Source of the DNA: an uncultured Gammaproteobacteria bacterium
Lineage (GTDB): Bacteria > Patescibacteriota > Microgenomatia > Levybacterales > UBA12049
Reading direction: 5' to 3'
Assembly (NCBI GenBank): GCA_964521295.1
Contig: CAZFRF010000001.1
Span: 398,146 to 462,145, forward strand
Length of the DNA stretch: 64,000 nucleotides
Shown here: in pieces, positions 4,947-50,278 of the stretch
How positions within the stretch are numbered: the first letter of the stretch is position 1
Layout of the letters: each line of letters opens with the position of its first letter
Translations under genes and position numbers: made by a program
The notes under the pieces: model-generated
Seen by the model: only the letters and a program-made list of their open reading frames with translations
What the model was told of the DNA's origin: nothing
Database searches by the model: none

Positions 4947-5010
4947 ATTCTTATTTTAGCAACTTTTAGACTGCATTGCATATTAAAATAATTAAGACTA
5001 TAATAATCTT

Positions 5011-10131: not shown

Positions 10132-10134
10132 AAT

Positions 10135-15514: not shown

Positions 15515-15620
15515 TAAAAATCAGAAGTTTAAGCATAGTTTACAGTAATAACTAAGTTTATTCAAATAAATAGTCTGATACTTTATTTTGGGGTTAATTT
15601 AATATACTATTAAGCTAATA

Positions 15621-17288: not shown

Positions 17289-19626
17289 TTGGATAAAATC
17301 TCCACTTTTTATCTTTACAATAATTGTTTTATTATTCTTTTTTAAATTTTTTATCCTAGGCAAAATACCTCTAGCTGCTGATCTTTTAATCTCAGAATAT
17401 AATCCCTGGAAACAATATTCATTCTTAGGCTACAACCCCGGAACCTTCCCCTCTAAATTTCAATACGGAGATGTAATTCATCAACTATATCCTTGGAAAA
17501 CTTTTACAATTGAGTCTTTTAAAAATTTAACCACTCCCCTTTGGAATCCCTACAACTTTTCTGGACATCCATTCCTGGCAGATATTCAGTCAGCAGTATT
17601 TCAACCTCTGAATCTTTTATATTTAATCCTCTCTCAACCCTTCGCATGGGGACTAACAATTGCCCTACAGCCCTTCATAGCCTTAATGGGAACATATCTA
17701 TTTGGAAGAAAAATTGGCTTAAAAAAAGAAGCTGCGATTTTTTCCTCTATTGCCTACGCCTTTTCATTATATATGACGACTTTCCTTGAGTACAATACAA
17801 TGGGTCATGTAATCGCAATCTTACCACTCATTTTATATGGAATTGAATTAATACTTCTAAAAAATAAATTTATAGGAATTTTAATATTTTCTTTATCAAT
17901 TGTTTATGCAATTTTTGCTGGACATATTCAACTTGCGGGCTTTAATATTCTCTTTGCAATTATTTATGCTTTATTTAGATTAAGTACTACAAAAGATAAG
18001 CTTAAGCACAGTCTACTTCTTTTTATCTCATTTACTATTTCTTTACTAATTGCATCTATTCAGTTATTACCCACGCTAGAACTACTTAGCTTAGCTGCAA
18101 GAATGAATCAGAATTACCAATTCTTAATCGAAAAGTTATTACTACAACCTTTCCAATCAATATTGTTTTTCTCACCTGATTTTTTTGGAAATCCAGCAAC
18201 TGGCAACTATAGAATAGCTGATTCATATCCTGGAAATTCTATTTATATAGGCTTAGCTACTGTTATTCTTGCGATCAGTTCAATAATATTAATTAAAAAA
18301 AATAATTTTATTAAATTTTTTATATTTATGTCTTGCCTATTTATCCTTCTATTTTTTAGAAATCCACTATCAGAAATGTTTTTCAAAATTAATATACCTT
18401 TTTTCTCAACAGGTTCTCCAACTAATGCTATTTACCTTTTAAGTTTTTGCCTTTCCCTTTTGGCAGGATTTGGAATTGAAAATTTAAAAAACAAAAATAA
18501 ATTACTGCTCTTTCTCTCTTTAATTATTATTTGCTTTCTGGGTATAAATAGTTTTATTTTTAAAGATTTAGTTAACAGTAAAAACTTAATATTATCTTTA
18601 CTCTTGTCATTTGCAATATTAACAATTTTAATAGTAAATAATTTTAATAAAGTAAAACACACAATTATAATCACTATTTTTACAATAATTACAGTTATTG
18701 ATCTTTTCTTTTATTTCCAAAAATTTAACTCATTTGTCCCTAAAGAGATTATTTTCCCAGACACAAAAATATTCAGTTATATCCAACAGAATTCTGGAAT
18801 TAATAGGATTTGGGGGTATAAAGATGCAAATCTAGAGCCCAATTTTAATACTCAATATAAAATTTTTTCAGCTGAAGGAACAGATCCTCTTTATCCTAAA
18901 TCATATGGAGAGATTATTAAAGCTTCTTATAAGGGAGATGTTAATGTAGATTTTTCTAATCAAACAAGATCTGATGCAATAATTTCTCAACATAATTTTG
19001 GTTTTACAAATCCTTTCCGAAGTAAAATACTCCAACTTACAGGAACAAAATATATTCTGGATATAAAAAATAGCACACAAGATAATTTCCCAATAGATGA
19101 ATATAACATTATCTACGAAGAAGCTCTCTGGAGAGTGTTAAAAGATTCAAAAGCAGCAGAAAGAATTTTTTTTGCAAAAAAATTAAATTATTATTCTAAT
19201 TCAGAAGAGTTTGCTAATAAATTCTTCAACTCAAACTTTAATGTTCAACAAGATATATTAATTGAAAACAATTCATATCCTAAAAATTATTTAGATAAAA
19301 TTGACAATAATCCAAAATATAAATTGATCGAATATTCACCAAACCAAATTATTATCAATACTCAAAGTAAAACTAAACAAATCTTATTTATTTCTGATAC
19401 CTATTATCCAGGCTGGAAAGCTACAGTTGATAATCAGGAAACTAAAATCGTAAAAACCAATTTTGCATTTAGATCTGTTGCCATTCCCCAAGGACAGCAT
19501 ACCGTAAAAATGATTTATAATCCAAATTCATTTAGAAATGGGTTTTATCTAACAATACTAGGATTTGCAGGTCTAGTTATTTTATGTATACTTTACTTTA
19601 GGAATGAATATTTTAAAAAGGACTAA
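17278..19626 (+). CDS. YfhO-family polytopic membrane protein (GT-C fold)
   Basis: WNPYNFSGHPFLADIQSAVFQPLN and C-terminal YYPGWKATVDNQETKIV motifs. Confidence 0.7.
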   Translation: MRSNWIKSPLFIFTIIVLLFFFKFFILGKIPLAADLLISEYNPWKQYSFLGYNPGTFPSKFQYGDVIHQLYPWKTFTIESFKNLTTPLWNPYNFSGHPFLADIQSAVFQPLNLLYLILSQPFAWGLTIALQPFIALMGTYLFGRKIGLKKEAAIFSSIAYAFSLYMTTFLEYNTMGHVIAILPLILYGIELILLKNKFIGILIFSLSIVYAIFAGHIQLAGFNILFAIIYALFRLSTTKDKLKHSLLLFISFTISLLIASIQLLPTLELLSLAARMNQNYQFLIEKLLLQPFQSILFFSPDFFGNPATGNYRIADSYPGNSIYIGLATVILAISSIILIKKNNFIKFFIFMSCLFILLFFRNPLSEMFFKINIPFFSTGSPTNAIYLLSFCLSLLAGFGIENLKNKNKLLLFLSLIIICFLGINSFIFKDLVNSKNLILSLLLSFAILTILIVNNFNKVKHTIIITIFTIITVIDLFFYFQKFNSFVPKEIIFPDTKIFSYIQQNSGINRIWGYKDANLEPNFNTQYKIFSAEGTDPLYPKSYGEIIKASYKGDVNVDFSNQTRSDAIISQHNFGFTNPFRSKILQLTGTKYILDIKNSTQDNFPIDEYNIIYEEALWRVLKDSKAAERIFFAKKLNYYSNSEEFANKFFNSNFNVQQDILIENNSYPKNYLDKIDNNPKYKLIEYSPNQIIINTQSKTKQILFISDTYYPGWKATVDNQETKIVKTNFAFRSVAIPQGQHTVKMIYNPNSFRNGFYLTILGFAGLVILCILYFRNEYFKKD

Positions 19627-21310
19627 TTTAATCATTATTATTGCTTCAATAATTATCTTAGCAGTAGGATTATTTTTCAGAATTTATAAATTGGATTCAA
19701 TTCCACCCGGTCTTTATCAAGATGAAACAGCAATTGGCTACAACGCCTACTCAATACTTAAAACTGGGGCAGATGAATATGGTAAAAATCTACCTTTATA
19801 CTTTAAATCTTTTGGCGACTATAAACTTCCTGTTTATATCTATTCAACTATACCGTCGATTATAATCTTTGGACTAAATGCTTTTGCTGTCAGATTCCCT
19901 TCTGCCCTATTCGGCTTCTTAACCCTGCCTCTAGTGGGTCTTTTGATGCTTAGATTTACTAAGAATAAATATTTCGCTCTAGTCTCTATGGCTATCTTGT
20001 CGATACTACCTTGGCACCTACACTACAACCGCGCAACCTTTGAAGTAAGCATTTCGCTCTTTTTATTTACTCTAGGAATTTATTTCTTACATAAAGCTTT
20101 TATTGATCAAAAACCAAAAGGTCTATTTTTACTAGGAACTATTTCGTTTATATTGGGTCTTTACACATATAACTTAACCAGACTACTTGCTCCCCTTATC
20201 TATATCTTAGTTTTAGTGTTTTTTAGAAAAAAAATAAGCCAAATAAATAAAGCAGAAATTATTCTAACGTCTGTAACTGGTTTTGTTTTACTAATTCCTG
20301 TTTTACTTACATTTTTTCAAAACGGAGGATCATCATCTGCCTCTGGAACATTAATCTTTTCAAGCGCTGCTGTACAAGCTCCACTTCTTGAATTTAGATC
20401 TTTTTTAGTTAATTCAAATGTACCCTTTATTGGAATGCTTTTTAATAAACTATTCCTAACAAGTTGGCAGTATTTGAATAATATTACAACCTATTTCTCT
20501 GTAGATTTCTTTTTCCTAAAAGGCTCTTTACATGGCAATCACGGAATAGGAAATTTTGGAGAATTCTACATAATACAACTTCCTTTCCTTATCTATGGAA
20601 TAGTTACAATTATTAGAAAAAAACTTGAATGGGGATATTTACTTATTGCCTGGGCAATATTAACTATTTTAACAGCGGCATTAACCAGAGATGTACCACA
20701 TGCTACTAGAAGTTTTTTCCTAATTCTGCCCTGCGTTGGATTTATTACGCTCGGCGTCTTTGAAGCTTTTAATTATCTTAAAACTCAAAAGAAATCACTG
20801 CAGTACTTAGCACTTTTTATTATTATTACCTTATCAACATATAATATAATTTATTACTTTAGTTCTTACTATTTTAGATTTCCTGTTGTGTACGCTAAGG
20901 CTTGGAGTTATTCAGATAAAGAATTAGTTAATTACTTAAAGCCCTTGGTTAATAGCTATGATCAGATTATCATTGATCCTAGCGGCCCAAAATATACATC
21001 CCTACTGTTTTACCTGGAATACTCACCTAAAGATTTTCAAGAAAGCTCTATTAGAGCCCGAGATGATTCGGAAGGATTTAGCGAAGTTAAATCTTTTGGT
21101 AAATTTATTTTTAAAAATATCGACTGGAATAATGATCTAAATTCACTAAATACACTACTAATTGCTAGCGCAGATAAAGTCCCTGGAAATGCCAAGGTAA
21201 TCAAAACATTTACGCTACCACAAAGGCCCGTTGTTATCCCTAAAGGACAGGAAATACTTAGCTTTCCAACAACAGACACAAGCTACGCAATAGTGGAAAC
21301 CGCAAGATAA
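19604..21310 (+). CDS. GT39/PMT_2 (ArnT-like) glycosyltransferase, paralog of 15621-17288
   Basis: FRIYKLDSIPPGLYQDETAIGYNAYSI motif. Confidence 0.65.
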   Translation: MNILKRTNLIIIIASIIILAVGLFFRIYKLDSIPPGLYQDETAIGYNAYSILKTGADEYGKNLPLYFKSFGDYKLPVYIYSTIPSIIIFGLNAFAVRFPSALFGFLTLPLVGLLMLRFTKNKYFALVSMAILSILPWHLHYNRATFEVSISLFLFTLGIYFLHKAFIDQKPKGLFLLGTISFILGLYTYNLTRLLAPLIYILVLVFFRKKISQINKAEIILTSVTGFVLLIPVLLTFFQNGGSSSASGTLIFSSAAVQAPLLEFRSFLVNSNVPFIGMLFNKLFLTSWQYLNNITTYFSVDFFFLKGSLHGNHGIGNFGEFYIIQLPFLIYGIVTIIRKKLEWGYLLIAWAILTILTAALTRDVPHATRSFFLILPCVGFITLGVFEAFNYLKTQKKSLQYLALFIIITLSTYNIIYYFSSYYFRFPVVYAKAWSYSDKELVNYLKPLVNSYDQIIIDPSGPKYTSLLFYLEYSPKDFQESSIRARDDSEGFSEVKSFGKFIFKNIDWNNDLNSLNTLLIASADKVPGNAKVIKTFTLPQRPVVIPKGQEILSFPTTDTSYAIVETAR

Positions 21311-26965: not shown

Positions 26966-29506
26966 ATGAATAACATTCAGCAGTTTGAAGCAAGTAACAT
27001 ACTTCATTTACTGTCCGCCAATCTATTAGGGAATCCTATTGCCAAAATCAGCTTTCCCCTCGTTCTATATGTCATAGTATTCTTAATAATTTGCTTGGCT
27101 ATATACGTTTTAAGAAAACTTATTGTTCTAAAAATGTTTTTAGACGAAAAACAAATAATATTAGAAATTACTCCTCCACAATTTATCGAAAAAGAAGCAT
27201 ATACAACAGAGCAACTCTTCTCTCTTATCCACGCTTTAGGAAAACAAAAAACATTTATGGATACGCTACTTGGAAGAAAAGTTCAGTTTTCTTTAGAAAT
27301 TGTTTCAACGAAAAATGAAGGCATTAGATATTTGATTAGGACAACACCCGAAAAAGCAAATACTTTAAGAAAGACATTAATTTCCTATCTTCCCCAGATA
27401 ATTATTAAAACAGTTGATGATTATCTTCCTAAAAATGATGAATTGAATACTAGTGAATATAAAATTGTTGAATATAAATTAACAAATCATTTTGCATATC
27501 CACTTAAGAAACAAAACTTACTAGATAAGCACGATCCCATTTCGTACATAACAGGAATGATGACAAAGCTAAATTCTAAAGAGCTTGTATCTCTTCAGAT
27601 AATACTTACTCCCGTAGCGTTAAAAGAAACAAAGAAAATTGCAAAATATATACTTAAAAATGCAGATACTCTTCATTACCTTAATTCAACAAAACTTCTA
27701 AGGCTTTTATCAATAGCTCCGAGTAAAACAATTGAGAGACAATCGTCATCTGAGAAAAAGATAATCGAATCAGTTGAAGAAAAAATAAAGCAACCACTTT
27801 TTAATACCTCTTTAAGGGTCTTCTTAATTTCAGATAGTAATAAGAATATTTCTGAAAGACTAAGTGGTATAAACTCTTCTTTTACTAGTTTTTCTGCTTC
27901 TAATTATCAATCAATAGCTTCCCGAAAATACTTAAACATTAAATTTATGAAAAATGTATTGTTATTTTCATTCAAAAAAAGACTTTCCCTACTAAACAAG
28001 TCTTTTCTTTCAATATCAGAAATTTCCTCAATATATCATTTTCCATTTGCGAACATAGTTAGCGCTGAAGATTTAGTTAAAACGCACAGCAAAACTTTAC
28101 CTGCTCCACTAAGCTTAAAACAATTAAATAAATATGAGGTTGTCTTTGGAAGTAACCATTATGGAGGCTCTATAACTGAAATTGGCTTAACTGAAGAGGA
28201 AAGGGCAACACATATGTATATTATTGGCCGAACCGGGTCAGGTAAAACCACGATGATGTTTTCAATGGCAAAACAGGACATTGAACAAGGCAGAGGTATG
28301 GCTTTTCTAGATCCCCATGGGGATGTTTCCGATGATCTTCTATCCATTATTCCGAAAGGGCGGCTGAATGATCTTGTTTATATAAATCCAATCGATTTAA
28401 AGTATCCAATCGGAATAAATATTCTAGAGCTAACCAAAGGACTTGACGCCGACGAAGCAGAGCTTGAAAAAGAAGTCGTTTGCGAAGGCGTTATTTCTTT
28501 ATTTCGAAAAGTATTCTCAAAAGAAGAGAATGTAAACGCTCATAGAATTGAATATATTCTCCGAAATGCTATTTATACAGCCTTTACAGTTGAGAATAGG
28601 ACTATCTTTACTGTATATGATCTTTTGAATAATCCTCCGTTCCAAAAACAGGTTATTTCAAAGCTAAAAGATGAGAACTTAAAAAACTTTTGGAAATTTG
28701 AATTTGGCAGAGCTGGAGATTATCAAGTGGTTAAAATGGTCGGTGGAGTTACAGCGAAGATTGGAAGATTTCTTTTTTCACCAACTGCTAAAAGAATTTT
28801 AGAACAGCCAATTTCAACAATTAATTTTGACCAGTTGCTAGATGAGAAAAAAATAATTATTTGTAATTTATCTCAAGGAAAACTTGGTGAGGATACCTCA
28901 AAACTTTTAGGAACAACTATAATGACCAAGATTCAACAGGCTGCTCTTAAGAGAGCCAATATTCCAGAAAACGAAAGAGTTCCGTTTTACCTATATGTTG
29001 ATGAGTTTCAAAACTTTGCAACCCACTCTTTTACTAAAATGTTATCAGAAGGCAGAAAATACAAACTGCGCGTAATACTTGCAGAGCAATCAACTTCTCA
29101 GCAGGATGATCGAAATATTGTGAATGTAATTCTTGCAAATGTAACAACTGTTGTAGTTTTTAGAAGTGCAAATTACATTGATGAAGAGTTGATGTTAAAT
29201 CAATTTGCTCCTTACATCGACAGAGGTGAGATATCAAATCTTCCAAAGTATAATTTCTATATTAAAATTTCAGCTCTTGTTCCGGAGGAACCATTCTCGG
29301 GAGTTACGATCTATACGCCACTTAAAAAAGACTATAAATTGATTGAAGAATTAATTAATGCTTCCAGAAAAAATAATGCGATAGTCTATCAAAAAGTAAA
29401 ACAACAAACTGTTGAAATTTCAACTAAAGACACCGAAGAAAAGAGTATGAATAGCAGAAATATTATTAATACTAAAGGTGGATTTCCTGTTAGTAGAGTT
29501 GCTTAA
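26966..29506 (+). CDS. type IV coupling protein (VirD4/TraG/TrwB family ATPase)
   Basis: N-terminal TM. IIGRTGSGKTTMMFSMAKQDIEQGRGMAFLDPHGD matches the TrwB/VirD4 Walker A region with its following DPxGD motif. Walker B is YLYVDEFQNF. Confidence 0.65.
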   Translation: MNNIQQFEASNILHLLSANLLGNPIAKISFPLVLYVIVFLIICLAIYVLRKLIVLKMFLDEKQIILEITPPQFIEKEAYTTEQLFSLIHALGKQKTFMDTLLGRKVQFSLEIVSTKNEGIRYLIRTTPEKANTLRKTLISYLPQIIIKTVDDYLPKNDELNTSEYKIVEYKLTNHFAYPLKKQNLLDKHDPISYITGMMTKLNSKELVSLQIILTPVALKETKKIAKYILKNADTLHYLNSTKLLRLLSIAPSKTIERQSSSEKKIIESVEEKIKQPLFNTSLRVFLISDSNKNISERLSGINSSFTSFSASNYQSIASRKYLNIKFMKNVLLFSFKKRLSLLNKSFLSISEISSIYHFPFANIVSAEDLVKTHSKTLPAPLSLKQLNKYEVVFGSNHYGGSITEIGLTEEERATHMYIIGRTGSGKTTMMFSMAKQDIEQGRGMAFLDPHGDVSDDLLSIIPKGRLNDLVYINPIDLKYPIGINILELTKGLDADEAELEKEVVCEGVISLFRKVFSKEENVNAHRIEYILRNAIYTAFTVENRTIFTVYDLLNNPPFQKQVISKLKDENLKNFWKFEFGRAGDYQVVKMVGGVTAKIGRFLFSPTAKRILEQPISTINFDQLLDEKKIIICNLSQGKLGEDTSKLLGTTIMTKIQQAALKRANIPENERVPFYLYVDEFQNFATHSFTKMLSEGRKYKLRVILAEQSTSQQDDRNIVNVILANVTTVVVFRSANYIDEELMLNQFAPYIDRGEISNLPKYNFYIKISALVPEEPFSGVTIYTPLKKDYKLIEELINASRKNNAIVYQKVKQQTVEISTKDTEEKSMNSRNIINTKGGFPVSRVA

Positions 29507-39385: not shown

Positions 39386-39583
39386 TTATATTTTGTACTC
39401 ATTCTTCATAGAAAATGATATGTTACCTCGCATAAAAAAACAAACGACAAATGATAATAAAAATATCAATATTGTAAAGCCAACATATGGTAGAAAATAG
39501 ATTAATCCAGAAACTAAGAAAAATCCTGTTGTAATAACCAACGAATTTATAAGTCTTCTGTGTAAAATAAAAAAGTTACTCAT
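39386..39583 (-). CDS. small hydrophobic protein, hypothetical
   Basis: 65 aa, two TM helices, sandwiched with 3-4 nt overlaps between copA and the propeller gene. Confidence 0.25.
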
Positions 39584-41892
39584 ATTTTAGATTTCTTTAA
39601 AAGAAGAGAATTTGTTATAACTGAAACGCTGCTAAATGCCATTGCAGCTCCTGCAATAGCAGGACTAAGCATAACTCCTGTAAATGGATACAAAATTCCA
39701 GCGGCAATTGGTATACCTATAATATTATAGAAAAATGCCCAGAAAAGATTTTGTTTTATTACACGCATAGTTGATCGAGATAGCCTTATAGCTTTGGGTA
39801 ATTTTGAGATATTACCACCAAGAAGGGTAATTCCCGCTGATTCAATTGCAACATCTGTCCCTGTACCCATCGCAACTCCAACATCAGCAGTAGCAAGCGC
39901 CGGAGCATCGTTAATACCATCCCCAACCATTGCCACCTTGTATCCTTCATCCTGTAACTTCTTAACCTCGTTTGCTTTATCTGCTGGGAGAACTTCAGCA
40001 ATTACTCGATCAATCCCTACTTGCTTTGCTATATGCTCTGCAGTACGACTGTTATCTCCAGTTAACATAGCTACTTTTATACCAAGGTCATGTAATGCTG
40101 ATACTGCTTCTTGTGCATCATCTTTTATCGTATCGGCAATAGCAATATACGCAAGAATTCCTTTTTTAGTTGCAAGAATTACTGGTGTTTTCCCCTGTGA
40201 AGTCATTTTCTTAATAAGATTAGCATCAACTTTTAATCCCAAATCTTCTACTAGCTTAAGATTTCCAGCAAAATATTGCACCCCAGCAATCGTCCCTTCG
40301 AGTCCTTTCCCTTCTAGTGCTTTAAAGTTTGAAACCGACAATAAGTCCACCTTGTCTTCATTTGCCTTTTCTACAACAGCTTGAGCCAATGGGTGTTCTG
40401 ATTGTTTTTCAAGAGATGCAAGAAGCTGCAGCACCTTTTTCTGCGCTATTTTTGCAGTTACATTAACATCAGTAACTGCAGGCTTACCATTGGTTATAGT
40501 TCCTGTTTTATCCATTACAACAAAGTTAATACTTTGGAATTTCTCAAGACTTTCTGCATTTTTAATCAAAATTCCATTCTGTGCTGCCTTTCCAACTCCA
40601 ACTATTACCGCTGTTGGGGTTGCAAGTCCCATTGCGCAAGGACAAGCAATGACAAGAATACCAACAAAACTAATCAAACCAAGTGAAAATGCCTGTGAAA
40701 TTGGCATAAATTGAGAACCAATAATAATCCATATAAGAAACATAACTACTGCAAAAACCAAAACAATAGGAACAAAAACACCAGATACTTGATCTGCAAT
40801 TCTTTCTATAGGAGCCTTTGATCCCTGTGCTGACTCAACCATTTTGATAATTTGCGATAACACCGTTTGCTCGCCTACTTGAGTCGCTTTCATCTGAAAT
40901 GCACCATATTTATTCATCGTTGCACCAATCACAGAATCTCCAGCAACTTTATCTACAGGAATTGGTTCACCGGTAATCATTGATTCATCAACTGAAGATT
41001 TGCCAGAAATAATCTCACCATCTATTGGAATTTTTTGGCCCGGTTTAACAATTAAAATATCACCGACTACGACTTGCCCTATTGGGACCTCTAACTCTTT
41101 TCCGTCACGGATTACTACAGCAATTTTTGCACTAAGACCTAACAATTTTTCAATTGCCGCACCAGTTTTTAGTTTTGATTTCGCTTCAAGATACTTTCCC
41201 AACGTAATAAATCCGATAACGACAATCGTAACATCATAATATAACCCTTCAGGCGCATTCAAAAAAATCTTTATTTCAGGGAAGAACAGCATTATGCTAC
41301 TGTAAAAATATGCAACAAGAGTACCGATACCTACTAATGTATCCATATTGGCAACTCTATATTTGATAAAACGAGTGACACCTTCTATAAATGGTTTCCC
41401 AATCCAAAACATCACAGGTGTTGCTAAAATAAATGAAGCAATGTTAAAAGCATCCATAGAAAGTGGAAAAGTAGGCAAAAAAGCGACACGCTGCGAAAGG
41501 ATTTCCCAGAGCATAAGAATAAATACGATTATTGCTATCGGCATGACAAATATGGTTTTTTGTCGCATTTCTTCCAACTCTTTAAGCTTCTCTTCTTTTG
41601 ATTGAGATGTTCCTAAATGCTCTGAATGATCCATACCAGCTTGCTGACTATGATCCATCGTTTTATGCTCTGCGTGATTTTCTGTATTTACGAATGAGTA
41701 CCCAAGTTTATTTATTTCGCGATTCATTGTATTTACTGAAACTTGAGATGGATCATATGCGACTGAGGCTTTTTCAGTTGCAAAATTAACTTCACAACTC
41801 GATATACCTGGGAGCTTTTTTAACTTTCTTGTAATAATTGCACTACAACTTGCGCAATGCATACCTTTTATCTGAAACGTATTTGTTTCCAT
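39580..41892 (-). CDS. copA: copper-translocating P1B-type ATPase
   Basis: N-terminal HMA domain [15 protein letters not shown] motif ([12 protein letters not shown]), DKTGTIT phosphorylation site, GDGINDAP hinge. Confidence 0.9.
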
Positions 41893-41895
41893 TTT

Positions 41896-43050
41896 TTAAG
41901 GTGTCCCTCCAGACTTATGTGACCATAAACTAATTCCATTTGGCATTCTACCTACTTTTATTTTTGTAATTTCTTTATCGGTTGCAGTACTAATAACTGA
42001 AACATCATCGCTCAAAAGATTAGAAACATATACTCTTTTTCCATCAGGAGAAACAACTACGCCATGGGGTGCAACTCCAGCTTTAATAGTCGAAGCGATT
42101 TGTCTTGCCTGTACATCAATCTTATATACAAAATCGCTTGTTGGCTTCTCAAAATAAAATCCTTGATCGGCTACATATAAATACTGGCCATCTGGCGTAG
42201 CGTATAATTGTATTGCGCCTTCAGCTCCAAATGGCAAATCTACATAGAAGACCTCCTCTGTAAGAGAATCGTAAAAAGCTATCTGTTTTGTGTCGTAAAC
42301 AGAGGCTGCAACATAGTTAGTATTAGGAATAACTGCTGTCTGTACTGCACTACCAGAAAGTGAAATTGTTTTTACTTCATTTGTTCTAGTGTTAACTAAT
42401 CCAATTCCTTTACCACCTATAAGAGCGACATATGCTCTCATATCGTCTCCTGAAAGCCTAAGACCATGCGGTTGTGTATCTTTAGCGAAAGCTATCGTTC
42501 TCTCTATATTATATGTCTCTCCATTGATTTTATAGACCAATCCTGATTCCTGGGCAGTTGCAAATATACTTTTCCCATCACGAGTTATTACTACATGAGC
42601 TAAATGTTGATCTATTCCTATGTCAATACGCTTGACTATCACATCTCTTTGAGGATCAATAATAATTATCTGATCTGGAAATGCCTTTTCTACTTCTTTC
42701 TCAGAATTATTGCTTTCCTCTCCATGCTCTTCAAGTCCCATGAAGTTTGCTGTTACCCATATACTCTTACCATCTGGGGCTACCTGAACATTGTGTGCAA
42801 TGTATTTCTTCTTCATATCTCCTCCTGAGTCAGTAATATCAATATTGCCAAGTAGCGAATTATCACTCGTATCAATTACAGCGACTGCTCCACCCTCTTC
42901 TAAAGCAACATATAGTTTTTCAGCAGCTTGATTTTGTTTTACGGACGAGCTGCTTGGGGATGCAATTTGATCCGAAATAAAAGCAAATCCTAGAACAATC
43001 ACAACAAAGATAAAGGAAATAATTACATATGTGTATTTTGATAATTGCAT
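41896..43050 (-). CDS. YVTN-family beta-propeller repeat protein
   Basis: Signal anchor and repeated about 40-aa units (YVALIGGKGIGLVN, YVSNLLSDDVSVIS) typical of YVTN/lactonase propellers. Confidence 0.5.
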   Translation of the reverse strand: MQLSKYTYVIISFIFVVIVLGFAFISDQIASPSSSSVKQNQAAEKLYVALEEGGAVAVIDTSDNSLLGNIDITDSGGDMKKKYIAHNVQVAPDGKSIWVTANFMGLEEHGEESNNSEKEVEKAFPDQIIIIDPQRDVIVKRIDIGIDQHLAHVVITRDGKSIFATAQESGLVYKINGETYNIERTIAFAKDTQPHGLRLSGDDMRAYVALIGGKGIGLVNTRTNEVKTISLSGSAVQTAVIPNTNYVAASVYDTKQIAFYDSLTEEVFYVDLPFGAEGAIQLYATPDGQYLYVADQGFYFEKPTSDFVYKIDVQARQIASTIKAGVAPHGVVVSPDGKRVYVSNLLSDDVSVISTATDKEITKIKVGRMPNGISLWSHKSGGTP

Positions 43051-43125
43051 ATAATTTATTTTTAAGTTTTAACTAGTTATCTCCTTGGAAGAAGTGCATT
43101 TCTTATTGCACCTCTCCTAAAAAGA

Positions 43126-43773
43126 TTACTGAGAATAACCCCAATCAGCATACCATTGCCTCATCTGGTCAATTTCATCTGTCTGAGCAGTTATTATGTC
43201 GTCTGCTAACTTCTTCATTTCAGGTCTTTGTGTCCCTCCTTTAAGCATACTTGCCATCATCACAGCCATTTGGTGATGTGGAATCATATCTTCTATGAAC
43301 GCTTTATCAAAGTCCTCTGTATTTTCAAGTCTTGTCATGTCAGTATCGTTACCCATCATTCCCATGTGCATACTGTTTCCCATTCTCATTCCGTGTTGAT
43401 TCATGACATTATTTCCTTCAGGAACATCTTTGCCAAACCAAGCTATGTACCAATCTTTCATTTGGTTAATTTCTGCTCCTTGAGAACTAATGATATTTTC
43501 TGCTAACTGTTTTATTTCAGGCCTCTGTGCTTTTTCCTGAGCAAGTTCTGCCATCGTTATTGCATCTTCGTGATGTGGAATCATTTGTTCTATAAAATGT
43601 GCGTCGATTGTATTAGAATCCTGCACTGTGCTTAGCTGATTTCCATTTTTATAACCCATCATTCCCATCACATTCGCATTATTTGAATTAACAATTATCA
43701 TAGTAGTAATCCATACAATTAACCCTCCAACAATTAACCCTCCAATTCCATACATTAGTTTATCGTTTTTCAT
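43126..43773 (-). CDS. DUF305 domain protein, internally duplicated (copper-associated family)
   Basis: Two repeats, FIEQMIPHHEDAITMA...INQMKDWY and FIEDMIPHHQMAVMMA...IDQMRQWY, plus a Met/His-rich linker. Confidence 0.6.
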   Translation of the reverse strand: MKNDKLMYGIGGLIVGGLIVWITTMIIVNSNNANVMGMMGYKNGNQLSTVQDSNTIDAHFIEQMIPHHEDAITMAELAQEKAQRPEIKQLAENIISSQGAEINQMKDWYIAWFGKDVPEGNNVMNQHGMRMGNSMHMGMMGNDTDMTRLENTEDFDKAFIEDMIPHHQMAVMMASMLKGGTQRPEMKKLADDIITAQTDEIDQMRQWYADWGYSQ

Positions 43774-43827
43774 ATTCTCACCCCCTTATCTTATTAAGAT
43801 TAAATACCCATATTCATATTTATGCAC

Positions 43828-44637
43828 CTATGATTCAACAACGCTTACGACACCTCCAAAGCCGGGATTTATATGATCATGAAATTCCCATTTACCCTTT
43901 TTGTCAAATACATATCTATAAATTGCACTTTTTTTGTAAGCTCTAAATTGATCAAATGTTGGTAATATGGTGTGTTGTGGATGAGACATAGACGCAACCC
44001 ACATATCTGTACTACTCTCATTTATAAATTCAACCGTACTACCAACTGGAACATCTACTTTATCCGGCACAAATCCTTTATCCGTATAACGAATTTTCGC
44101 CATAGTTTTTGCGCCTTTCATTGCATGAGTCATTCCAGCAGATTCTCCTTCAGTAATACTTGTTGGTAATGATTTACCTGATTTTACGTATCGGGCCGTC
44201 ATAAAACCGTTTTCATCAATTGCTGGCATGTCAAGATCGTTAAATGTACTGTCATTTGCATAATCCTCATAAATCATGACAATCAGCTCTTGATTTGCAA
44301 CTTTAGCATTTCCTAGTGGAATCTCTACATTTTTATGCATGCCTTTTTGTAATGGTCGACTCATTTCAATAACTTGACTCAACTTACCATCATTCATTTG
44401 TCGAACTACAAGAAAACCGTTCTTTTGTAATATTGCACTTGCAACATTTACCTTATCTTTAGGTTTTTGGGGAACAACCACAAGATTTTTTGTATTTTGA
44501 CTATTAACCTTTTCTCCTCTATCTTGAGACCGAAGTGTTTTTGTCGATGGCTTACTTTTATTCAGAAAAATAAAAACTACTGAAACCGTTACTGCTAGAA
44601 ACCCACAAAAAACGATAAAAAATTGTAGTGCTTTCAT
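43828..44637 (-). CDS. secreted hypothetical protein with His/Met-containing C-terminal beta domain (possible cupredoxin-like metal binder)
   Basis: Signal anchor. The C-terminus reads GSTVEFINESSTDMWVASMSHPQH...EFHDHINPGFGG. Confidence 0.3.
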   Translation of the reverse strand: MKALQFFIVFCGFLAVTVSVVFIFLNKSKPSTKTLRSQDRGEKVNSQNTKNLVVVPQKPKDKVNVASAILQKNGFLVVRQMNDGKLSQVIEMSRPLQKGMHKNVEIPLGNAKVANQELIVMIYEDYANDSTFNDLDMPAIDENGFMTARYVKSGKSLPTSITEGESAGMTHAMKGAKTMAKIRYTDKGFVPDKVDVPVGSTVEFINESSTDMWVASMSHPQHTILPTFDQFRAYKKSAIYRYVFDKKGKWEFHDHINPGFGGVVSVVES

Positions 44638-44909
44638 TATTGTCTTTTTTTAAAAACCTCCATTATTTCATTAATTGATTTATCAGCTTCTCCTTTTTTA
44701 ATCGCATCCGAAACGCAAGACTTAAGGTGATTTTCAAGAAGTAGGTTGCCCGTTTCTTTAAGTCCTGATTCAACTGCCTGAATTTGATGAATAACATCAA
44801 TGCAATAAGCATCTTCATCCATCATCTTAATGACTTTATCGAGGTGTCCTCGTGCAATCTTGAGACGGTGAGTAATTCTTTCGTGTGTGTCTTTTGGTCT
44901 GTATGCCAT
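44637..44909 (-). CDS. csoR: CsoR/RcnR family metal-sensing transcriptional repressor
   Basis: 90 aa all-helical. It carries the conserved C-H-C ligand set (YCIDVIHQ ... HLKSC). Confidence 0.8.
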   Translation of the reverse strand: MAYRPKDTHERITHRLKIARGHLDKVIKMMDEDAYCIDVIHQIQAVESGLKETGNLLLENHLKSCVSDAIKKGEADKSINEIMEVFKKRQ

Positions 44910-45025: not shown

Positions 45026-45053
45026 TGATCCAATTAAATATTGTTTGTTCTAG

Positions 45054-45080
45054 AAACTGCTTGGGGGCAGTTTTTTGGTT
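45054..45080 (+). promoter_or_regulatory. leader stem-loop (AAACTGC-TTGGGG-GCAGTTT) followed by a T-run, between the promoter and the pilin RBS; terminator-like attenuator candidate
   Basis: 7-bp stem and 6-nt loop, then TTTTTTGGTTTT. It sits immediately upstream of the SD AGGAGG at 45086-91. Confidence 0.35.
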
Positions 45081-45098: not shown

Positions 45099-45443
45099 AT
45101 GAAAAAGTTAATCATAATTCAATCTGTTTTTATTACTTCATTAATAGTCGCTACTCCTGCGCTCGCTCAAACCACTGGAGGAGACGTTACAAGAATTCAA
45201 AATTTCATTCAAAGCATAATTGGTATTTTTGTAACTCTTTCTGGACTTATCGCAACTGGATTTTTTGTATATGGAGGAGTTCGCTATATAACAAGCTCAG
45301 GAAATCCTGAAGCACTAGATTCAGCAAAAAAAACTATTTTATATTCATCAATTGGTCTTGCTATAGTTCTAGGAGCGTTCGTTTTAAGTAATATAGTCAC
45401 ACAGGTTGCAACAACAGCTTTTGGTTCAAGTTCTGGTCTATAG
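45099..45443 (+). CDS. VirB2/TrbC-like conjugative pilin
   Basis: The signal peptide ends in PALAQ. Two hydrophobic helices separated by a short polar loop. SD AGGAGG lies 7 nt upstream of ATG 45099. The ORF-track start at 45075 is a TTG upstream of the SD and is unlikely. Confidence 0.6.
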   Translation: MKKLIIIQSVFITSLIVATPALAQTTGGDVTRIQNFIQSIIGIFVTLSGLIATGFFVYGGVRYITSSGNPEALDSAKKTILYSSIGLAIVLGAFVLSNIVTQVATTAFGSSSGL

Positions 45444-45460
45444 AAATTAGAAAGGAACTT

Positions 45461-46741
45461 ATGAAATTATTAAAAATTGCTGGCTTTTTAGCTACAATAT
45501 TTTTTATATCTGCCAATCCTGCATTCGCTGCAGGAGGAAACCTTGCGACTTTTACTTCTCAAACTCTGAATACATTAATAATCTTTGCCACTCTTGGAGC
45601 AACTTTCTTCTTAATAAAAGGTGGATATTCATACATCACTTCTGCTGGTAAGCCAGAAGCTTTAGAACACGCCAAGCTAACTATAAGAAATGCTGTAATA
45701 GGCTTAGTCTTAGTTTTAGGTGCATCTCTAATTACTTCTCTTTTAACCAATGCATTTAATACACCAACTGGTAATTTTACTTCGACTCAAATAGCGCTCT
45801 CCCCAATTGTGCCTGCTACTCCTTCAAACGGATTAACGCAGGTACTTTTAGACGCTATTGCAGGATTTTTACAAAACATAGTACAAAGCGCAACTAAGCC
45901 TCTTGTTGATGGAATAATTAGCTTTTTAACTACTACCCCCTCTTTAACTTCAAATTCAGTAATATTTAATTTTTGGCTTGTAATAGTAGGCATCACTGAT
46001 GCACTTTTTGCAATAGTTATTGCTCTTCTTGGACTTCATATTATGAGCGCTTCCACTTTTGGATTTGATGAGATTGAATTTAAACATCTTCTCCCTCGTA
46101 TTGGACTTGCATTTTTACTTGCTAATACTTCAATCTTTTTAGCAAATTGGGTTATTCAAGCTGCGAACGCATTAGTAAACGCACTAATAAATTCATTTGG
46201 AGGGATTGAAAGCGCTTGGATTTTAAACGCATTTAATCCGGCATCACTAATAGCTGGAACAACTTCTATAATTACTCTTATTTTTATGATTATTTTTGTA
46301 ATTCTTGCAGTAGTGCTTATTCTCTTCTACATATCTCGTCTTATTTTAATTTCGCTTGGAGCTGTTCTCTCTCCACTCATTTTTCTTCTTTGGATAATAC
46401 CAAGATTCTCTGATTTTGCTGAAATTACAATTAAAACATATATAATCACTGTCTTTTCTACTTTTGTTCACGTTGTAATAATTCTTTTAGCCTCTGCTTT
46501 TCTTACCATTCCAGGGCAAAGGGGAACGAATTCTCTGATTTCAATTCTCGTTGGGATTGGCTTACTTTTTACTCTTCTTAAAACTCCTGGAATTATGATG
46601 CAGATGGTTTTCTATAACTCAGGACGAGGTATGGTAAAAAAAGTTGGAAGTCAGATTATTAATGTGATTTCAACTCAAAAAGCATCCGAAGCAGTTACCG
46701 GAGAAATTGTAAAAACCCCAAGAAAGGTTATTGCAGCATGA
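45461..46741 (+). CDS. VirB6/TrbL-like polytopic T4SS membrane protein with an N-terminal pilin-like domain
   Basis: The N-terminal 100 aa are homologous to the preceding pilin (YSYITSAGKPEALEHAK vs VRYITSSGNPEALDSAK), followed by 6 or more TM helices. Confidence 0.5.
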   Translation: MKLLKIAGFLATIFFISANPAFAAGGNLATFTSQTLNTLIIFATLGATFFLIKGGYSYITSAGKPEALEHAKLTIRNAVIGLVLVLGASLITSLLTNAFNTPTGNFTSTQIALSPIVPATPSNGLTQVLLDAIAGFLQNIVQSATKPLVDGIISFLTTTPSLTSNSVIFNFWLVIVGITDALFAIVIALLGLHIMSASTFGFDEIEFKHLLPRIGLAFLLANTSIFLANWVIQAANALVNALINSFGGIESAWILNAFNPASLIAGTTSIITLIFMIIFVILAVVLILFYISRLILISLGAVLSPLIFLLWIIPRFSDFAEITIKTYIITVFSTFVHVVIILLASAFLTIPGQRGTNSLISILVGIGLLFTLLKTPGIMMQMVFYNSGRGMVKKVGSQIINVISTQKASEAVTGEIVKTPRKVIAA

Positions 46742-47250
46742 GAACTCGAATAATTCCAGCTCAAATTACTACAGTCGAGGACAAAATTGCTGGAAATCTT
46801 AGTTTAACTCAGCTTTTGCTTTTAGTTTTTCCTGCTTTTATTTCGGCTTTAGCATATATCGTTCTCCCTCCAATACTTTCCTTTTCAATTTATAAGCTAC
46901 CTATAATTTTTATCTCAATTTTCATTTGCTGTACTCTCGCTATACGAATCAAAGACAAATTAATCCTTAATTGGATTACTATATTTATTTCTTACAATGT
47001 CAGGCCAAAGTTTTATGTATTTAATAAAAATGATGCTTATCTAAGAGATATAGATTTACCATTAAATAAAAAATCACGACCAATTTTTAGAAAAAAAGTT
47101 ACGCGAAGTGCAAAAAAAGTAATCCCAACCATAAGTCCTAATGAACTTGTAAGACTTGATGATTTAATAAGTAATCCGAGATATAGATTTAGCATTAAAA
47201 ATAGCGGAAAAGGAGGTATGCATGTTGCTTTTGAACAAGAACAAAAATAA
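46738..47250 (+). CDS. VirB3-like (PrgI/TcpE-type) small membrane protein
   Basis: Two adjacent TM helices near the N-terminus. Position immediately upstream of VirB4. Confidence 0.4.
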   Translation: MRTRIIPAQITTVEDKIAGNLSLTQLLLLVFPAFISALAYIVLPPILSFSIYKLPIIFISIFICCTLAIRIKDKLILNWITIFISYNVRPKFYVFNKNDAYLRDIDLPLNKKSRPIFRKKVTRSAKKVIPTISPNELVRLDDLISNPRYRFSIKNSGKGGMHVAFEQEQK

Positions 47251-47833
47251 AACATCGTCAAGACAGCAAATTCAAATAAAAGAAGTGCGAGATGGAATTT
47301 TGATACTACCAAAGAGTGAATTTCGAGTAATTATCGAAACTTCTTCAATAAATTTTGAATTAAAAAGCGAAGAAGAACAAGATATATTAATTGATAGTTT
47401 TCAAAACTTTCTTAATTCCCTTCCGGGAAAGCTTCAGGTACTTGTTAGAGTAAGAGAAATTGATATTGAGAGTTATCTTGAACAAATAGGAAAAAGTAAG
47501 GAGATTGAAAAAGAAAAAATATATAAGATGCAAATTGACAATTACAGTTCTTTTATTAAAAACCTAGTAACGGGTAATAAGATATTATCCAGACGCTTTT
47601 ATATTGTTATTTCATATGAACACACTGATAAAAACAAGGAATATTCAATAATAAAAGAGCATATGTATCTGCAAAGAGATCTTGTTGGAAGAGGTCTTGA
47701 AAAACTTGGAATGAAAGCAAGAGTCTTAGACAGCCTTGAAGTATTAGATTTATTCTATAGCTTTTATAACCCAAATCAAATCAAAACACAGCAGCTAAAA
47801 GAGCAAACTATAGAAATGTTACTTAAGAATTAA
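47222..47833 (+). CDS. VirB4 N-terminal domain fragment (split or frameshifted virB4, part 1)
   Basis: KEVRDGILILPKSEFRVIIETSSINFELKSEEEQDILIDSFQNFLN resembles the VirB4/TraE N-terminal region. Its stop is 1 nt before the next ATG, in a different frame. Confidence 0.45.
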   Translation: MLLLNKNKNKTSSRQQIQIKEVRDGILILPKSEFRVIIETSSINFELKSEEEQDILIDSFQNFLNSLPGKLQVLVRVREIDIESYLEQIGKSKEIEKEKIYKMQIDNYSSFIKNLVTGNKILSRRFYIVISYEHTDKNKEYSIIKEHMYLQRDLVGRGLEKLGMKARVLDSLEVLDLFYSFYNPNQIKTQQLKEQTIEMLLKN

Positions 47834-47834
47834 T

Positions 47835-49655
47835 ATGCAAAACCTTAATAAACAATTTAATAAACTACCATCCAAGTATTCAATACCATATTTTGGAAAG
47901 AAAGGTAGAAAAGCGAAAAAAGCGCAACTGCTTAGAAAGTCTTTTGAGTATAACTTTGGTGAACAGGATCAAGTTGATTTAATCTCATACTCTGGTCTTG
48001 AAGAAAATGGTACCTATCTTAAAATAGGAGATAAATATGTTCGAACATTATTTATATCCGCCTTTCCCTATATAGCCTCTACTGGATGGCTAAATATGCT
48101 TATTAATTTTAATCATGATATTGATATCTCCTATCATATTGAACAAGTTGACCCGCTTGTTGCTTTACCTAAACTAAATAGAAAAATAACAGAGCTTGAA
48201 TCTACAAAAAGAGCCATGCAAAAAAATGGCAAAATAATTGGTTCTGAAATAACAGATCCATTAGAATCGGCAATTCTTTTGAAAGATAAAATTCAAAGAG
48301 GTCAAGAAAAACTTTTTCAAATATCAATCTACATGGGTTTAAGCGCCGACAGTCTAGAGCAACTAAACAAATTAACAACCATTCTCGAAACAGCAATGTC
48401 CACTCATCTTTTTTATATAAAGACAGCAGCTTTTCAACAACTTGAAGGCTTGCAATCTGTTCTTCCCCGTTCTGAAAACAAGCTTAATCAAAAAAGAAAT
48501 TTGGATTCCTCATCAGCTGCTCTAACCTTCCCTTTTGTTTCATCAGAACTCGTTCAAGAAACAGGAATATTATATGGAATTAACAAATCAAATAATTCAT
48601 TAGTTATCGTTGACAGATTTTTACTTAATAATGCAAATAGCATTATTTTTGCTCAATCTGGAAGCGGTAAAAGCTATGCTGCAAAAGTTGAAATACTTCG
48701 TCAACTTATGCAAGGAACACGCGCAATTATTATCGATCCTGAACGCGAATATAAACAGCTTGCAGAATCAGTTAATGGAACTTATATAAAACTTTCTGCA
48801 AAATCCCATGAAAAAATCAACCCATTTGATTTTTCTCTTACTTCAAACAATGATGGCGGTGATCTCGTTGAGCATATTCAAGATCTAACAGAAATTATTT
48901 CCCTTCTTGTTGGCTCTCTTACTACAGAAGAAAAAGCAATTGTAGACAAGGCAATAATTCAAACATACAAAGAGCATGGTTTTTCACTTAATGCCAAGAA
49001 TATTTCAAAAAAAGACAAAGAATTTCCACTTTTAAAAGATTTCTATAAGGTGTTAAAAGACATGAAGCAAAAAGATCTTAGCAATAGACTGGAACGCTTT
49101 GTAAAAGGCTCTTTGTCATCTGTTTTTGACCAACAGACCAATATTGAGATTAATAATAGACTAGTGGTTTTTGATATTAAAGATTTGAATGAATCACTTC
49201 GACAAATTATGATGATGGTAATTGCAAACTTTGTAAATTCCCAGGTTAAATCAAATCCTCAAAAAAGAATATTAGTAATTGATGAAGGATGGATGCTTCT
49301 TGAACATCCAGAAAGTGCAAGATTTATTTCAGGCCTAGTTAGACGAGCAAGAAAATATTATCTAGGCGTAACAATTATTACGCAGCAAGCAAATGATTTT
49401 CTCACCCAAGAATATGGAAGAGCAATTGCAAGCCAATCCTCCCTTAGAATTCTAATGCGCCAAGATACGACAACAATTAAAAAAGTCGCACAAGAATTTA
49501 AATTAAGTGAATATGAAGAACACTTTCTTTTAACTTGCGATCGTGGAGAGGGATTAATTATAGCCGATCAAAATCATGTAGCCTTAAAAGTTGTTGCATC
49601 AGAAAAAGAACATCCACTGCTTACGACAGATCCTAAGGAGATATATTTAATCTAG
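47835..49655 (+). CDS. VirB4-family conjugal transfer ATPase (part 2, ATPase domain)
   Basis: Walker A IIFAQSGSGKSY. The VirB4-type Walker B is LVIDEGWMLL (the DEAW box). Combined with the upstream fragment the length is about 809 aa. Confidence 0.75.
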   Translation: MQNLNKQFNKLPSKYSIPYFGKKGRKAKKAQLLRKSFEYNFGEQDQVDLISYSGLEENGTYLKIGDKYVRTLFISAFPYIASTGWLNMLINFNHDIDISYHIEQVDPLVALPKLNRKITELESTKRAMQKNGKIIGSEITDPLESAILLKDKIQRGQEKLFQISIYMGLSADSLEQLNKLTTILETAMSTHLFYIKTAAFQQLEGLQSVLPRSENKLNQKRNLDSSSAALTFPFVSSELVQETGILYGINKSNNSLVIVDRFLLNNANSIIFAQSGSGKSYAAKVEILRQLMQGTRAIIIDPEREYKQLAESVNGTYIKLSAKSHEKINPFDFSLTSNNDGGDLVEHIQDLTEIISLLVGSLTTEEKAIVDKAIIQTYKEHGFSLNAKNISKKDKEFPLLKDFYKVLKDMKQKDLSNRLERFVKGSLSSVFDQQTNIEINNRLVVFDIKDLNESLRQIMMMVIANFVNSQVKSNPQKRILVIDEGWMLLEHPESARFISGLVRRARKYYLGVTIITQQANDFLTQEYGRAIASQSSLRILMRQDTTTIKKVAQEFKLSEYEEHFLLTCDRGEGLIIADQNHVALKVVASEKEHPLLTTDPKEIYLI

Positions 49656-50278
49656 TGAGTCCACTTCTAATTTCTACTATCTGGTCTTTTAAAAAAGAAC
49701 TTATAATTGTTTCCTCAGCATTCCTAATAACTCTTTTAATTCCGGTCGTTGCTGTAATTCTTTTGACTAATTCAGGTATTGATATAATTTCCGACAGGCT
49801 TGCAACAAAAAACTTACAAACTCAGACAGTTACGATTCATGATCCAGCAACCGGAAAAATAATTAGCACTATAAATGTTAATACCTCTTGGCCTACAAAT
49901 GGCGTAGTTACATTAGAATTTGGAGAGCCAAATCTACCCTATCAACTTTTCCATTCTGGAATTGATATAGCCAGTCCAAACGGAAAAGTGGGAAATCCAG
50001 TCACAGCTCTCATGCCTGGAAAAGTCATTTATGCAGGAGAGATATCTTGGGGGTTTGGAAAACATATAATAATAGATCACGGAAACAACGTAACCTCAAT
50101 TTATGCCCATCTAGATAAAATTTACGTAGCTAAAGATCAAGAAATTAAAACTACAGATCAAGTAATAGGACTTGAAGGGGAAACCGGATGGGCAACTGGT
50201 CCACATCTCCACTTTCAGGTAAATGTTTTCGGAATACCCGTTAACCCAAGAACTTTTTTATCGGGAAACCCAAATTAA
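49655..50278 (+). CDS. M23 peptidase (T4SS-associated cell-wall hydrolase, VirB1 functional analog)
   Basis: N-terminal TM and HSGIDIA...HLHFQV M23 motifs. Confidence 0.65.
   Translation: MSPLLISTIWSFKKELIIVSSAFLITLLIPVVAVILLTNSGIDIISDRLATKNLQTQTVTIHDPATGKIISTINVNTSWPTNGVVTLEFGEPNLPYQLFHSGIDIASPNGKVGNPVTALMPGKVIYAGEISWGFGKHIIIDHGNNVTSIYAHLDKIYVAKDQEIKTTDQVIGLEGETGWATGPHLHFQVNVFGIPVNPRTFLSGNPN

Follow-up and report, generated by a model that had tools for sequence, protein, structure and literature searches.

Does the operon for a type IV secretion system (T4SS) in an uncultured bacterium of the Patescibacteriota (Microgenomatia, Levybacterales) encode its pilin twice, once free and once as a domain fused to its channel subunit, and what might the second copy do there? 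The question is raised by a stretch of 64,000 nucleotides (nt), positions 398,146 to 462,145 of contig CAZFRF010000001.1, here called the window. A preliminary description of its sequence had proposed that a stand-alone VirB2-like pilin is followed by a VirB6-like protein with a pilin domain at its N-terminus. The two genes lie side by side:

45099-45443, + strand: free VirB2-type pilin of 114 amino acids (aa), above the cutoffs of PF18895, PF04956 and NF045849
45461-46741, + strand: polytopic protein of 426 aa, the pilin-VirB6 fusion, in one uninterrupted frame 17 nt downstream of the pilin

The open reading frame (ORF) of the free pilin starts at the ATG at 45099, with the ribosome-binding site AAAGGAGGTG just ahead. 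In BLASTP, pilin residues 16-113 pair with 16-104 of the fusion at 42% identity (41/98, E=1e-15). This alignment stands far above shuffled sequences, with a Smith-Waterman score of 158 against 34+/-6 for full shuffles (z=20) and 47+/-11 when shuffling is confined to windows of 10 aa that keep the hydrophobicity profile (z=10). Every other region of the 426-aa protein scores at background in local alignment with the pilin. Membrane-helix composition as the source of the similarity is ruled out by the window-preserving shuffle together with these background scores. Profile-profile comparison by hhalign relates the free to the fused hairpin with 99.6% probability (E=7e-25), and single-sequence hhalign to TrwL of plasmid R388 gave nothing significant. 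PF18895 (T4SS_pilin) recognises the free pilin at 46 bits and the fused hairpin at 27.8 bits, barely above the gathering score of 26.6. The free pilin also matches PF04956 (TrbC/VirB2, 34.5 bits, gathering score 27.9) and the NCBIfam model NF045849 (Mbov_0395 pilin-like, 43.6 bits, cutoff 40); the Pfam scan gave no PF04956 match in the fused hairpin. The shared region covers, as had been proposed, the signal peptide, the first helix, the GG(Y/V)xYITSxGxPEALxxAK loop and the second helix, and it extends further to the (T/N)AF motif that closes helix 2 at the very end of the free pilin. BLASTP, Pfam and the completeness of the TrbL/VirB6-like core described below bear out the central claim of a pilin domain present twice.

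There is practically no chance that a frameshift or misassembly joined a second pilin gene to a separate virB6. This is refuted by independent contigs, homologues and related loci: the identical 426-aa protein is found on three independent contigs, the longest of 935,984 bp, and the single ORF is continuous in the window and kept in related loci. The homologue search returned more than 1,688 proteins (over 1,600 full-length homologues). Support for an artefact was not found; the nearest thing to it is an ORF interrupted in two related loci, L056 (4317-4967, 216 aa) and L046 (4342-5409, 355 aa), where tblastn matches run past the break and which are either assembly errors or pseudogenes. Both breaks lie within the TrbL core, away from the domain junction, and a split at the junction was found in none of 56 related loci.

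The 120 homologues listed are all 412-443 aa long and nearly all cover 95-100% of the query. PF18895 is present in 118 of them, usually together with a TrbL domain (PF19590/PF19597). Their source names are Woyke-, Levy- and Daviesbacteria and 'Patescibacteria group', and their product names 'pilin' or 'conjugal transfer protein TrbL family protein'. Among GTDB species representatives, 58 loci with the fusion were found; a free pilin gene (~108-112 aa) lies immediately upstream of the fused gene in all 54 that have upstream DNA. A divergent set of fused proteins, 470-500 aa long with ~42% core identity and the same architecture, carries the names Saccharimonadales or Saccharibacteria. The fusion is the standard form of a large family in Patescibacteria, both in Microgenomatia and in Saccharimonadia, the classes being assigned from the names attached to the homologues. 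The preliminary description had called the architecture unusual for a T4SS. This is right in so far as it is absent from the model T4SSs and the fused form was not found among 72,556 plasmids, but needs qualifying for the Patescibacteria, with their large family of this form, and there is an archaeal precedent. The sole match to the TrbL core family in the plasmid collection is a Streptomyces replicon. Two complete free-pilin and fusion loci (L004 and L005) lie ~55 kb apart on contig JBBDPM010000004.1 of Candidatus Woykebacteria, so some genomes have the system twice.

How is the fused protein built? An alignment of 41 fusion homologues, conserved throughout with 71% mean column identity, served as input for AlphaFold2. 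The following parts are distinguished:

45461-45529, + strand: predicted Sec signal peptide of the fusion, residues 1-23 (MKLLKIAGFLATIFFISANPAFA before the predicted cleavage site, AGGN after it), with n/h/c layout
45530-45754, + strand: VirB2-like hairpin, residues 24-98, from BLASTP, PF18895, hhalign and AlphaFold2
45755-45838, + strand: Pro/Thr/Ser-rich inter-domain linker, residues 99-126, predicted to be extracytoplasmic and disordered
45839-46672, + strand: complete TrbL/VirB6-like core, residues ~127-404, with seven long helices, from profiles and Foldseek
46673-46741, + strand: C-terminal tail (residues 405-426) and stop codon, poorly conserved and probably cytoplasmic

The full-length model (predicted local distance difference test score, pLDDT, 64) has a signal helix at residues 2-17, a helix at 28-60 and another at 65-100 with a turn of four residues (61-64) between them, a disordered stretch at ~101-124 (pLDDT <50 for 101-122) and seven long helices up to residue 404. 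The C-terminal tail has 25% mean identity in the close family and pLDDT <50. The free pilin likewise begins with a predicted signal peptide (residues 1-23, with predicted cleavage between ATPALA and QTTGG); its hairpin of two helices has the loop YITSSGNPEAL. In both proteins an n/h/c layout and an AxA-type site are conserved. In the fusion the small-residue rule at positions (-3,-1) is kept by every homologue with an intact, alignable N-terminus and A23 is invariant; cleavage of the signal peptide is predicted. Signal peptide and topology of the fusion were read from motifs and hydropathy alone. They suggest that the mature hairpin has both ends outside and its K/R-bearing loop (GGYxYITSxGKPExLxxAKxTIRN, with K64, K72 and R76 in the loop region) in the cytoplasm, and that linker and amphipathic first core helix are on the outer side. 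This agrees with the N-out topology known for VirB6.

Is the core a VirB6 in its own right? Profile TrbL_4 covers residues 125-404 of the window protein at 21.6 bits (E=1.5e-4), below its gathering score of 27, and a precomputed PF19590 (TrbL_3) match is on record for the identical 426-aa protein. PF04610 (TrbL/VirB6) matches a fused Saccharimonadia homologue (P0300) at 25.9 bits, equal to its gathering score, and a distant relative (P0218) at 32.4 bits. Membership in the TrbL/VirB6 profiles holds at family level and is marginal for the window sequence alone. A core-only AlphaFold2 model (residues 125-426; pLDDT 73.7, predicted template modelling score 0.62) has chains of R388 TrwI as its top four Foldseek matches, with probability 0.98-1.00, E 0.018-0.054 and template modelling (TM) score 0.41-0.46 over 262-290 aligned columns on chains of 260-272 residues; unrelated matches have probability <=0.16. 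A sequence-profile search against solved structures returned noise only. We assign to the core, with moderate confidence and from models, a VirB6 fold of about seven long helices like that of TrwI.

Two methods agree on where this core begins. PF04610 spans TrwI residues 40-259, and the same profile positions begin near residue 159 in the fused homologue; hhalign places fusion residues 294-385 on TrwI 170-270. Both give an offset of ~120 residues, by which residue 1 of TrwI corresponds to ~120-125 of the fusion. A query with the TrbL part gave 699 representatives, and the hairpin precedes the core in 54 of the best 150, down to ~27-30% core identity. More distant core relatives matched by PF04610 either are 280-300 aa long, lack the hairpin and start exactly at the first core helix, or have a signal-anchor and a Pro-rich linker where the hairpin would sit. 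In six high-GC, actinobacteria-like sequences (P0224, P0228, P0235, P0236, P0269 and P0270) a signal-anchor and a Pro-rich low-complexity linker of 60-100 aa replace the hairpin. The hairpin profile has no similarity in hhalign to the core's own first helices or to TrwI. Because the core alone spans TrwI, the offset is ~120 residues, unfused relatives begin at the core and the hairpin does not resemble the core, the hairpin with its linker is an extra module added to a complete VirB6. The same four lines rule out that it is VirB6's own first helical pair, which would be a well-preserved form of the deep VirB2-VirB6 homology of Beltran et al.

Does the hairpin stay on this core? The preliminary description had suggested that the protein might be processed to release a second pilin. 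According to this polyprotein explanation, cleavage in the linker or where helix 2 ends would free the hairpin to enter the pilus as a minor, tip or priming pilin, and what is left would be an ordinary VirB6. The reach of the similarity to the very end of the free pilin, (T/N)AF motif included, speaks for it, as do the orientation of helix 2, which is that of a signal peptide, the near-invariance of A98, F99 and P102, and the presence of the same loop motif in both paralogues, as expected if both enter the pilus. C-terminal processing is known for pilins of the VirB2/TrbC type (RP4 TrbC, VirB2), which also counts in its favour. The junction itself argues against it. No conserved site of signal-peptidase type was found between hairpin and linker among 84 sequences: the (-3,-1) pattern at residues 96/98 is present in only 40/84, failing because position -3 drifts through Q, N, H, R and K, whereas the rule is obeyed at the N-terminal site wherever this is intact. 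The linker (consensus AFxTP...LxPIxPxxPxxGLTQ) is exactly 28 aa long with conserved prolines in 51/51 close homologues, which is unexpected of a discarded spacer, and 23-34 aa long in distant ones. In no operon are hairpin and core encoded by two genes divided at the junction, and the operon is without a dedicated protease gene, its M23 and CHAP enzymes being interchangeable wall hydrolases. A linker of fixed length and a junction with no conserved cleavage site speak against release and for a hairpin that remains attached. Release by signal peptidase I is disfavoured, and we consider the polyprotein explanation as a whole improbable.

How old is the second copy? All 108 hairpins from 54 genomes are nearest to their own type, free or fused. 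Identity between free and fused hairpins is 33.9% within a genome and 33.8% between genomes, to be compared with 67% among free pilins and 54.5% among fused hairpins. Since identity is equal within and between genomes, the neighbouring genes are not homogenised; recent duplication or gene conversion between them is ruled out by these values and by the own-type neighbours. Between Microgenomatia and Saccharimonadia the same-type scores (287 and 217) exceed the cross-type ones (146 and 132), which places the duplication before the split of the two classes. By these sequence comparisons, free and fused hairpins are ancient paralogues kept separately since before that split. The architecture of the pilin-VirB6 fusion and this evolution we regard as close to certain.

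What, then, has been kept? The stretch common to both paralogues runs from the end of helix 1 through the turn into the start of helix 2, GG..YITS.G.P..L..AK.TI....GL. Conservation in the fusion is highest in this loop core (residues 54-77), at 71% identity within the close family and 52% to distant fused forms. The corresponding values are 64% and 35% for the TrbL core, 38% and 16% for the linker, and 28% and 20% for the signal peptide; both hairpin helices are less conserved than the loop. The loop conservation argues that the hairpin is functional and more than a mere anchor. It bears on an explanation in which a leftover pilin duplicate was reused for export and anchoring, to hold the N-terminus of the core outside, with no pilin-specific interaction. 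The relatives whose TrbL core is preceded by a simple signal-anchor with a Pro-rich linker, or by nothing, speak for such a purely topogenic role, and indicate that the N-terminal module is exchangeable across the wider family. However, hydrophobicity would suffice for an anchor, and the fused hairpin shares its loop motif with the free pilin across a class-level divergence, the helices being less conserved than the loop. We consider a topogenic anchor quite unlikely, if a little less so than the polyprotein.

The same loop lends itself to another role, that of a gate or coupler acting in cis. The hairpin would fill the pilin site of VirB6 or bind VirB3 or VirB4 through its loop, and would take no part in the extracellular structure. 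The conserved element shared by the paralogues is the cytoplasm-facing loop, where a contact with VirB4 or VirB3 would fall. VirB4 reportedly dislocates VirB2 from the membrane and helix alpha1 of VirB3 co-evolves with VirB2 (PMC9259494). Such a role also avoids the difficulty, discussed below, of pili growing from their base. There is no direct evidence for it, and it overlaps with the explanation that we favour to the point of being inseparable from it with these data. We rate it as unlikely, if less so than the anchor.

We favour the explanation that the hairpin is a tethered docking module. In R388, VirB6 forms a pentamer whose transmembrane helix alpha1 recruits VirB2, and the base of the pilus is a VirB2 pentamer (Mace et al. 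2022, PMC9259494). AlphaFold 3 modelling of five PrgH(B6) with 10 or more PrgF(B2) places a pilus on VirB6, and the loop residues of PrgF, which are indispensable to conjugation, line the lumen (bioRxiv 10.64898/2025.12.18.695078). If the hairpin remains covalently attached, a VirB6 pentamer would carry five hairpins within the linker's reach of the core's first transmembrane helix, which would correspond to the VirB2 recruitment site of R388 VirB6. By analogy with the R388 pentamers and the AlphaFold 3 model, the five would give a docking layer, a pilin-like surface fitting the base layer of five subunits in a VirB2 pilus. On it free pilin would dock, to be built by VirB4 into a pilus or a short conduit through the wall. 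The tethered copy would serve as a built-in layer for docking or nucleation and not as a polymerising subunit. The suggestion in the preliminary description that the fusion anchors the pilus base is compatible with all results.

Several observations weigh against this explanation. Pili are thought to grow from their base, and a permanently tethered bottom layer is hard to square with subunit insertion there; the difficulty would fall away for hairpins that stay in the membrane or for a short static conduit. The near-invariant Ala98-Phe99 and Pro102 at the junction could serve a protease other than signal peptidase I. The likeness in structure to VirB6 is of moderate strength (Foldseek E 0.018-0.054, TM 0.41-0.46), with models of pLDDT 64 and 74, and contacts of the hairpin with the core or with free pilin are putative. 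The explanation as a whole, architecture together with tethered docking module, we hold at slightly under an even chance, and its docking or nucleation mechanism somewhat below that, as a tentative proposal. A more specific form, in which the hairpins make a fixed five-membered collar on the VirB6 pentamer that templates a five-start pilus and takes in cis the role that VirB5 and the 'assembly site' of VirB6 have in Gram-negative systems, is more doubtful still.

The two genes open a chromosomal six-gene operon for a T4SS of monoderm type (free pilin, pilin-VirB6 fusion, PrgI/VirB3, TrsD-like protein, VirB4 and a cell-wall hydrolase), which continues as follows:

46738-47250, + strand: PrgI-type VirB3 homologue, 170 aa (PF12666, 30.6 bits, gathering score 27)
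47222-47833, + strand: TrsD/TraC-N-terminal-like protein, 203 aa (weak PF11130 TraC_F_IV and weak PF26593 TraC-like matches; position conserved)
47835-49655, + strand: VirB4-family ATPase, 606 aa (PF19044, PF12846, PF01935; conju_CD1110, 387 bits, cutoff 325)
49655-50278, + strand: M23 peptidase, 207 aa (PF01551, 94 bits), the last gene of the operon

The same six genes (free pilin, fusion, PrgI, TraC-like, VirB4, wall hydrolase) form the operon of a Saccharimonadia locus (L061), and in both the fusion gene is directly upstream of those for PrgI, the TrsD-like protein and VirB4. In the window the start of the PrgI gene overlaps the stop of the fusion gene. The VirB4 function is split over 47222-49655 (+ strand): the 203-aa protein corresponds to the N-terminal ~190 residues of a CD1110/TraC-type VirB4 and the 606-aa ATPase to the rest. 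In NCBIfam the smaller protein matches TrsD weakly (21.5 bits) and the N-terminal part of conju_CD1110. Its gene overlaps the end of the PrgI gene, and the same split is found in the Saccharimonadia locus. The M23 peptidase is probably a cell-wall hydrolase in the position of a VirB1 analogue; a CHAP-domain protein (10316-10825) has this position in the Saccharimonadia locus, which looks like non-orthologous replacement of a VirB1-like function. None of the six genes encodes a relaxase, part of the window ORFs having been scanned. A coupling-protein-like gene for an 846-aa protein (26966-29506, + strand; TrwB_AAD_bind and TraG-D_C, weak NCBIfam TraD/CedD) does not adjoin the operon and lies 15.6 kb away.

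Metal-homeostasis and housekeeping genes flank the operon, and G+C content is 31-37% throughout, so there is no compositional island. The 5' leader (45052-45075, + strand) holds a terminator-like hairpin, (A)CUGCC-loop-GGCAG followed by a U-run, ~10 nt ahead of the ribosome-binding site of the pilin gene. It recurs upstream of the free-pilin gene in about 25/54 related loci. RNAalifold on 23 leaders gave a stem of 7 bp with compensatory changes in 3 pairs, the CUGCC/GGCAG core being conserved as sequence. The element could be an attenuator, a stabilising 5' stem-loop or a palindromic operator. A promoter scan gave fewer matches than in shuffles and was uninformative. Directly upstream of the operon, on the opposite strand, lies a copper/metal module (39580-44909, - strand):

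44637-44909, - strand: CsoR-type repressor
43828-44637, - strand: DUF7282 protein
43126-43773, - strand: DUF305/DUF4142 protein
41896-43050, - strand: protein of 384 aa
39580-41892, - strand: HMA-domain P-type ATPase

Farther away, 1614-21310 is a dense cluster of genes for large, glycosyltransferase-like membrane proteins. It may bear on glycosylation of the envelope, for which the Ser/Thr/Pro-rich linker of the fusion is a conceivable substrate. The cluster includes:

1614-3872, 5222-7639 and 17278-19626: three YfhO-like proteins
15621-17288 and 19604-21310: two PMT-like proteins
12279-15514: two PTPS-related membrane proteins

How VirB2 is recruited to VirB6 and how the filament starts is an open question of T4SS biology, and the current recruitment model is built on docking, co-evolution and mutagenesis in a single plasmid system. 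A VirB6 with a pilin copy of its own on a tether of fixed length, conserved in two classes of Patescibacteria, is a construct supplied by nature with which that model can be tested; it could reveal how pili of these ultra-small bacteria start on their base. Were the collar real, the fusion would be a natural covalent snapshot of a VirB2-VirB6 assembly intermediate. There is also a gain for annotation: proteins of ~430 aa now named 'pilin' or 'TrbL family protein' would, once recognised as the fusion, supply the channel subunit and take one member from apparent 'pilin arrays'. Patescibacteria T4SSs are essential for the epibiotic lifestyle in the one species tested, and a minimal six-gene version makes a useful system.

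Which known systems does this operon resemble? With TrwI and TrwL of R388 (MPF-T) it shares the fold class of the core, TrwI being the top Foldseek match, the Pfam clan, through PF04610 in homologues, and the membership of both free pilins, TrwL and that of the window, in PF04956. The functional logic of a pilin assembled on a VirB6 pentamer is also common to both. Unlike the fusion, TrwI has neither hairpin nor linker and begins at what is residue ~121-125 of the fusion, and R388 has VirB5, VirB7-11 and an outer-membrane complex, all absent here. No similarity of TrwL to TrwI was detected by hhalign; the weak VirB2-VirB6 likeness of A. tumefaciens is not reproduced for R388. Closer in gene order are PrgF(B2)-PrgH(B6)-PrgI(B3)-PrgJ(B4)-PrgK of pCF10 and Mbov_0395/0397 of the Mycoplasma integrative and conjugative element, where a pilin-like gene just precedes VirB6, VirB3, VirB4 and a wall hydrolase. 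The free pilin of the window scores above the cutoff of the Mbov_0395 model and its VirB4 above that of conju_CD1110, and the pilin loop of PrgF is functionally critical. However, in these elements, which are mobile and conjugative while the window operon is chromosomal, the VirB2-like protein is small and separate, and a fused form has not been reported.

The T4SSs described in the Patescibacteria clade (Quinonero-Coronel et al. 2025, PMC12102498; Wang et al. 2023, PMC10633639) are likewise chromosomal, with a VirB4 related to MPF-FATA, a PrgI-type VirB3, TrsD beside VirB4, no relaxase in the cluster and VirB2-like pilins recognised by PF18895/PF04956. In those papers VirB2 and VirB6 are distinct components, and the only fusions mentioned are of VirB3 with VirB4, of which they report none. 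S. epibionticum ML1 differs in having another VirB6-like protein, of 1,088 aa, and six free pilins. The 2025 survey calls VirB6 'scarce' in Microgenomatia, which it reads as 'suggesting extreme sequence divergence', and finds abundant VirB2 'arrays' in that class (PMC12102498). The fusion is probably the VirB6 missing from that survey, whose table gives only VirB4 and TrsD at the locus for the three Microgenomatia genomes checked, the fusion being unconfirmed in those three. No description of a bacterial VirB2-VirB6 fusion was found in open-access papers or on bioRxiv; an architecture conserved across thousands of related proteins is apparently undescribed in print.

The closest precedent is archaeal. 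In the Ced system of Sulfolobales and Aeropyrum, the N-terminus of CedA is homologous to nearly the whole CedA1 pilin, and a weaker VirB2-VirB6 resemblance exists in A. tumefaciens (Beltran et al. 2023, PMC9905601). As in the window, a VirB6-like protein has an N-terminus homologous to its cognate pilin, the pilin is also separately encoded, and the T4SS is chromosomal, domesticated and without relaxase. Ced differs in being archaeal and in importing DNA. CedA1 is reportedly secreted unprocessed, whereas both window proteins have predicted Sec-type signal peptides, and the CedA-CedA1 relation needed profile methods where 42% identity is seen here by BLASTP. The operon is not a member of the Ced family by the NCBIfam CedD model, which two ATPases match weakly (35 bits, cutoff 600). 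The likeness to CedA/CedA1, known here by description, is architectural and not familial. Taken with CedA/CedA1, a true collar would be evidence that conjugative pilins and the N-terminal module of VirB6 arose one from the other through gene fission or fusion.

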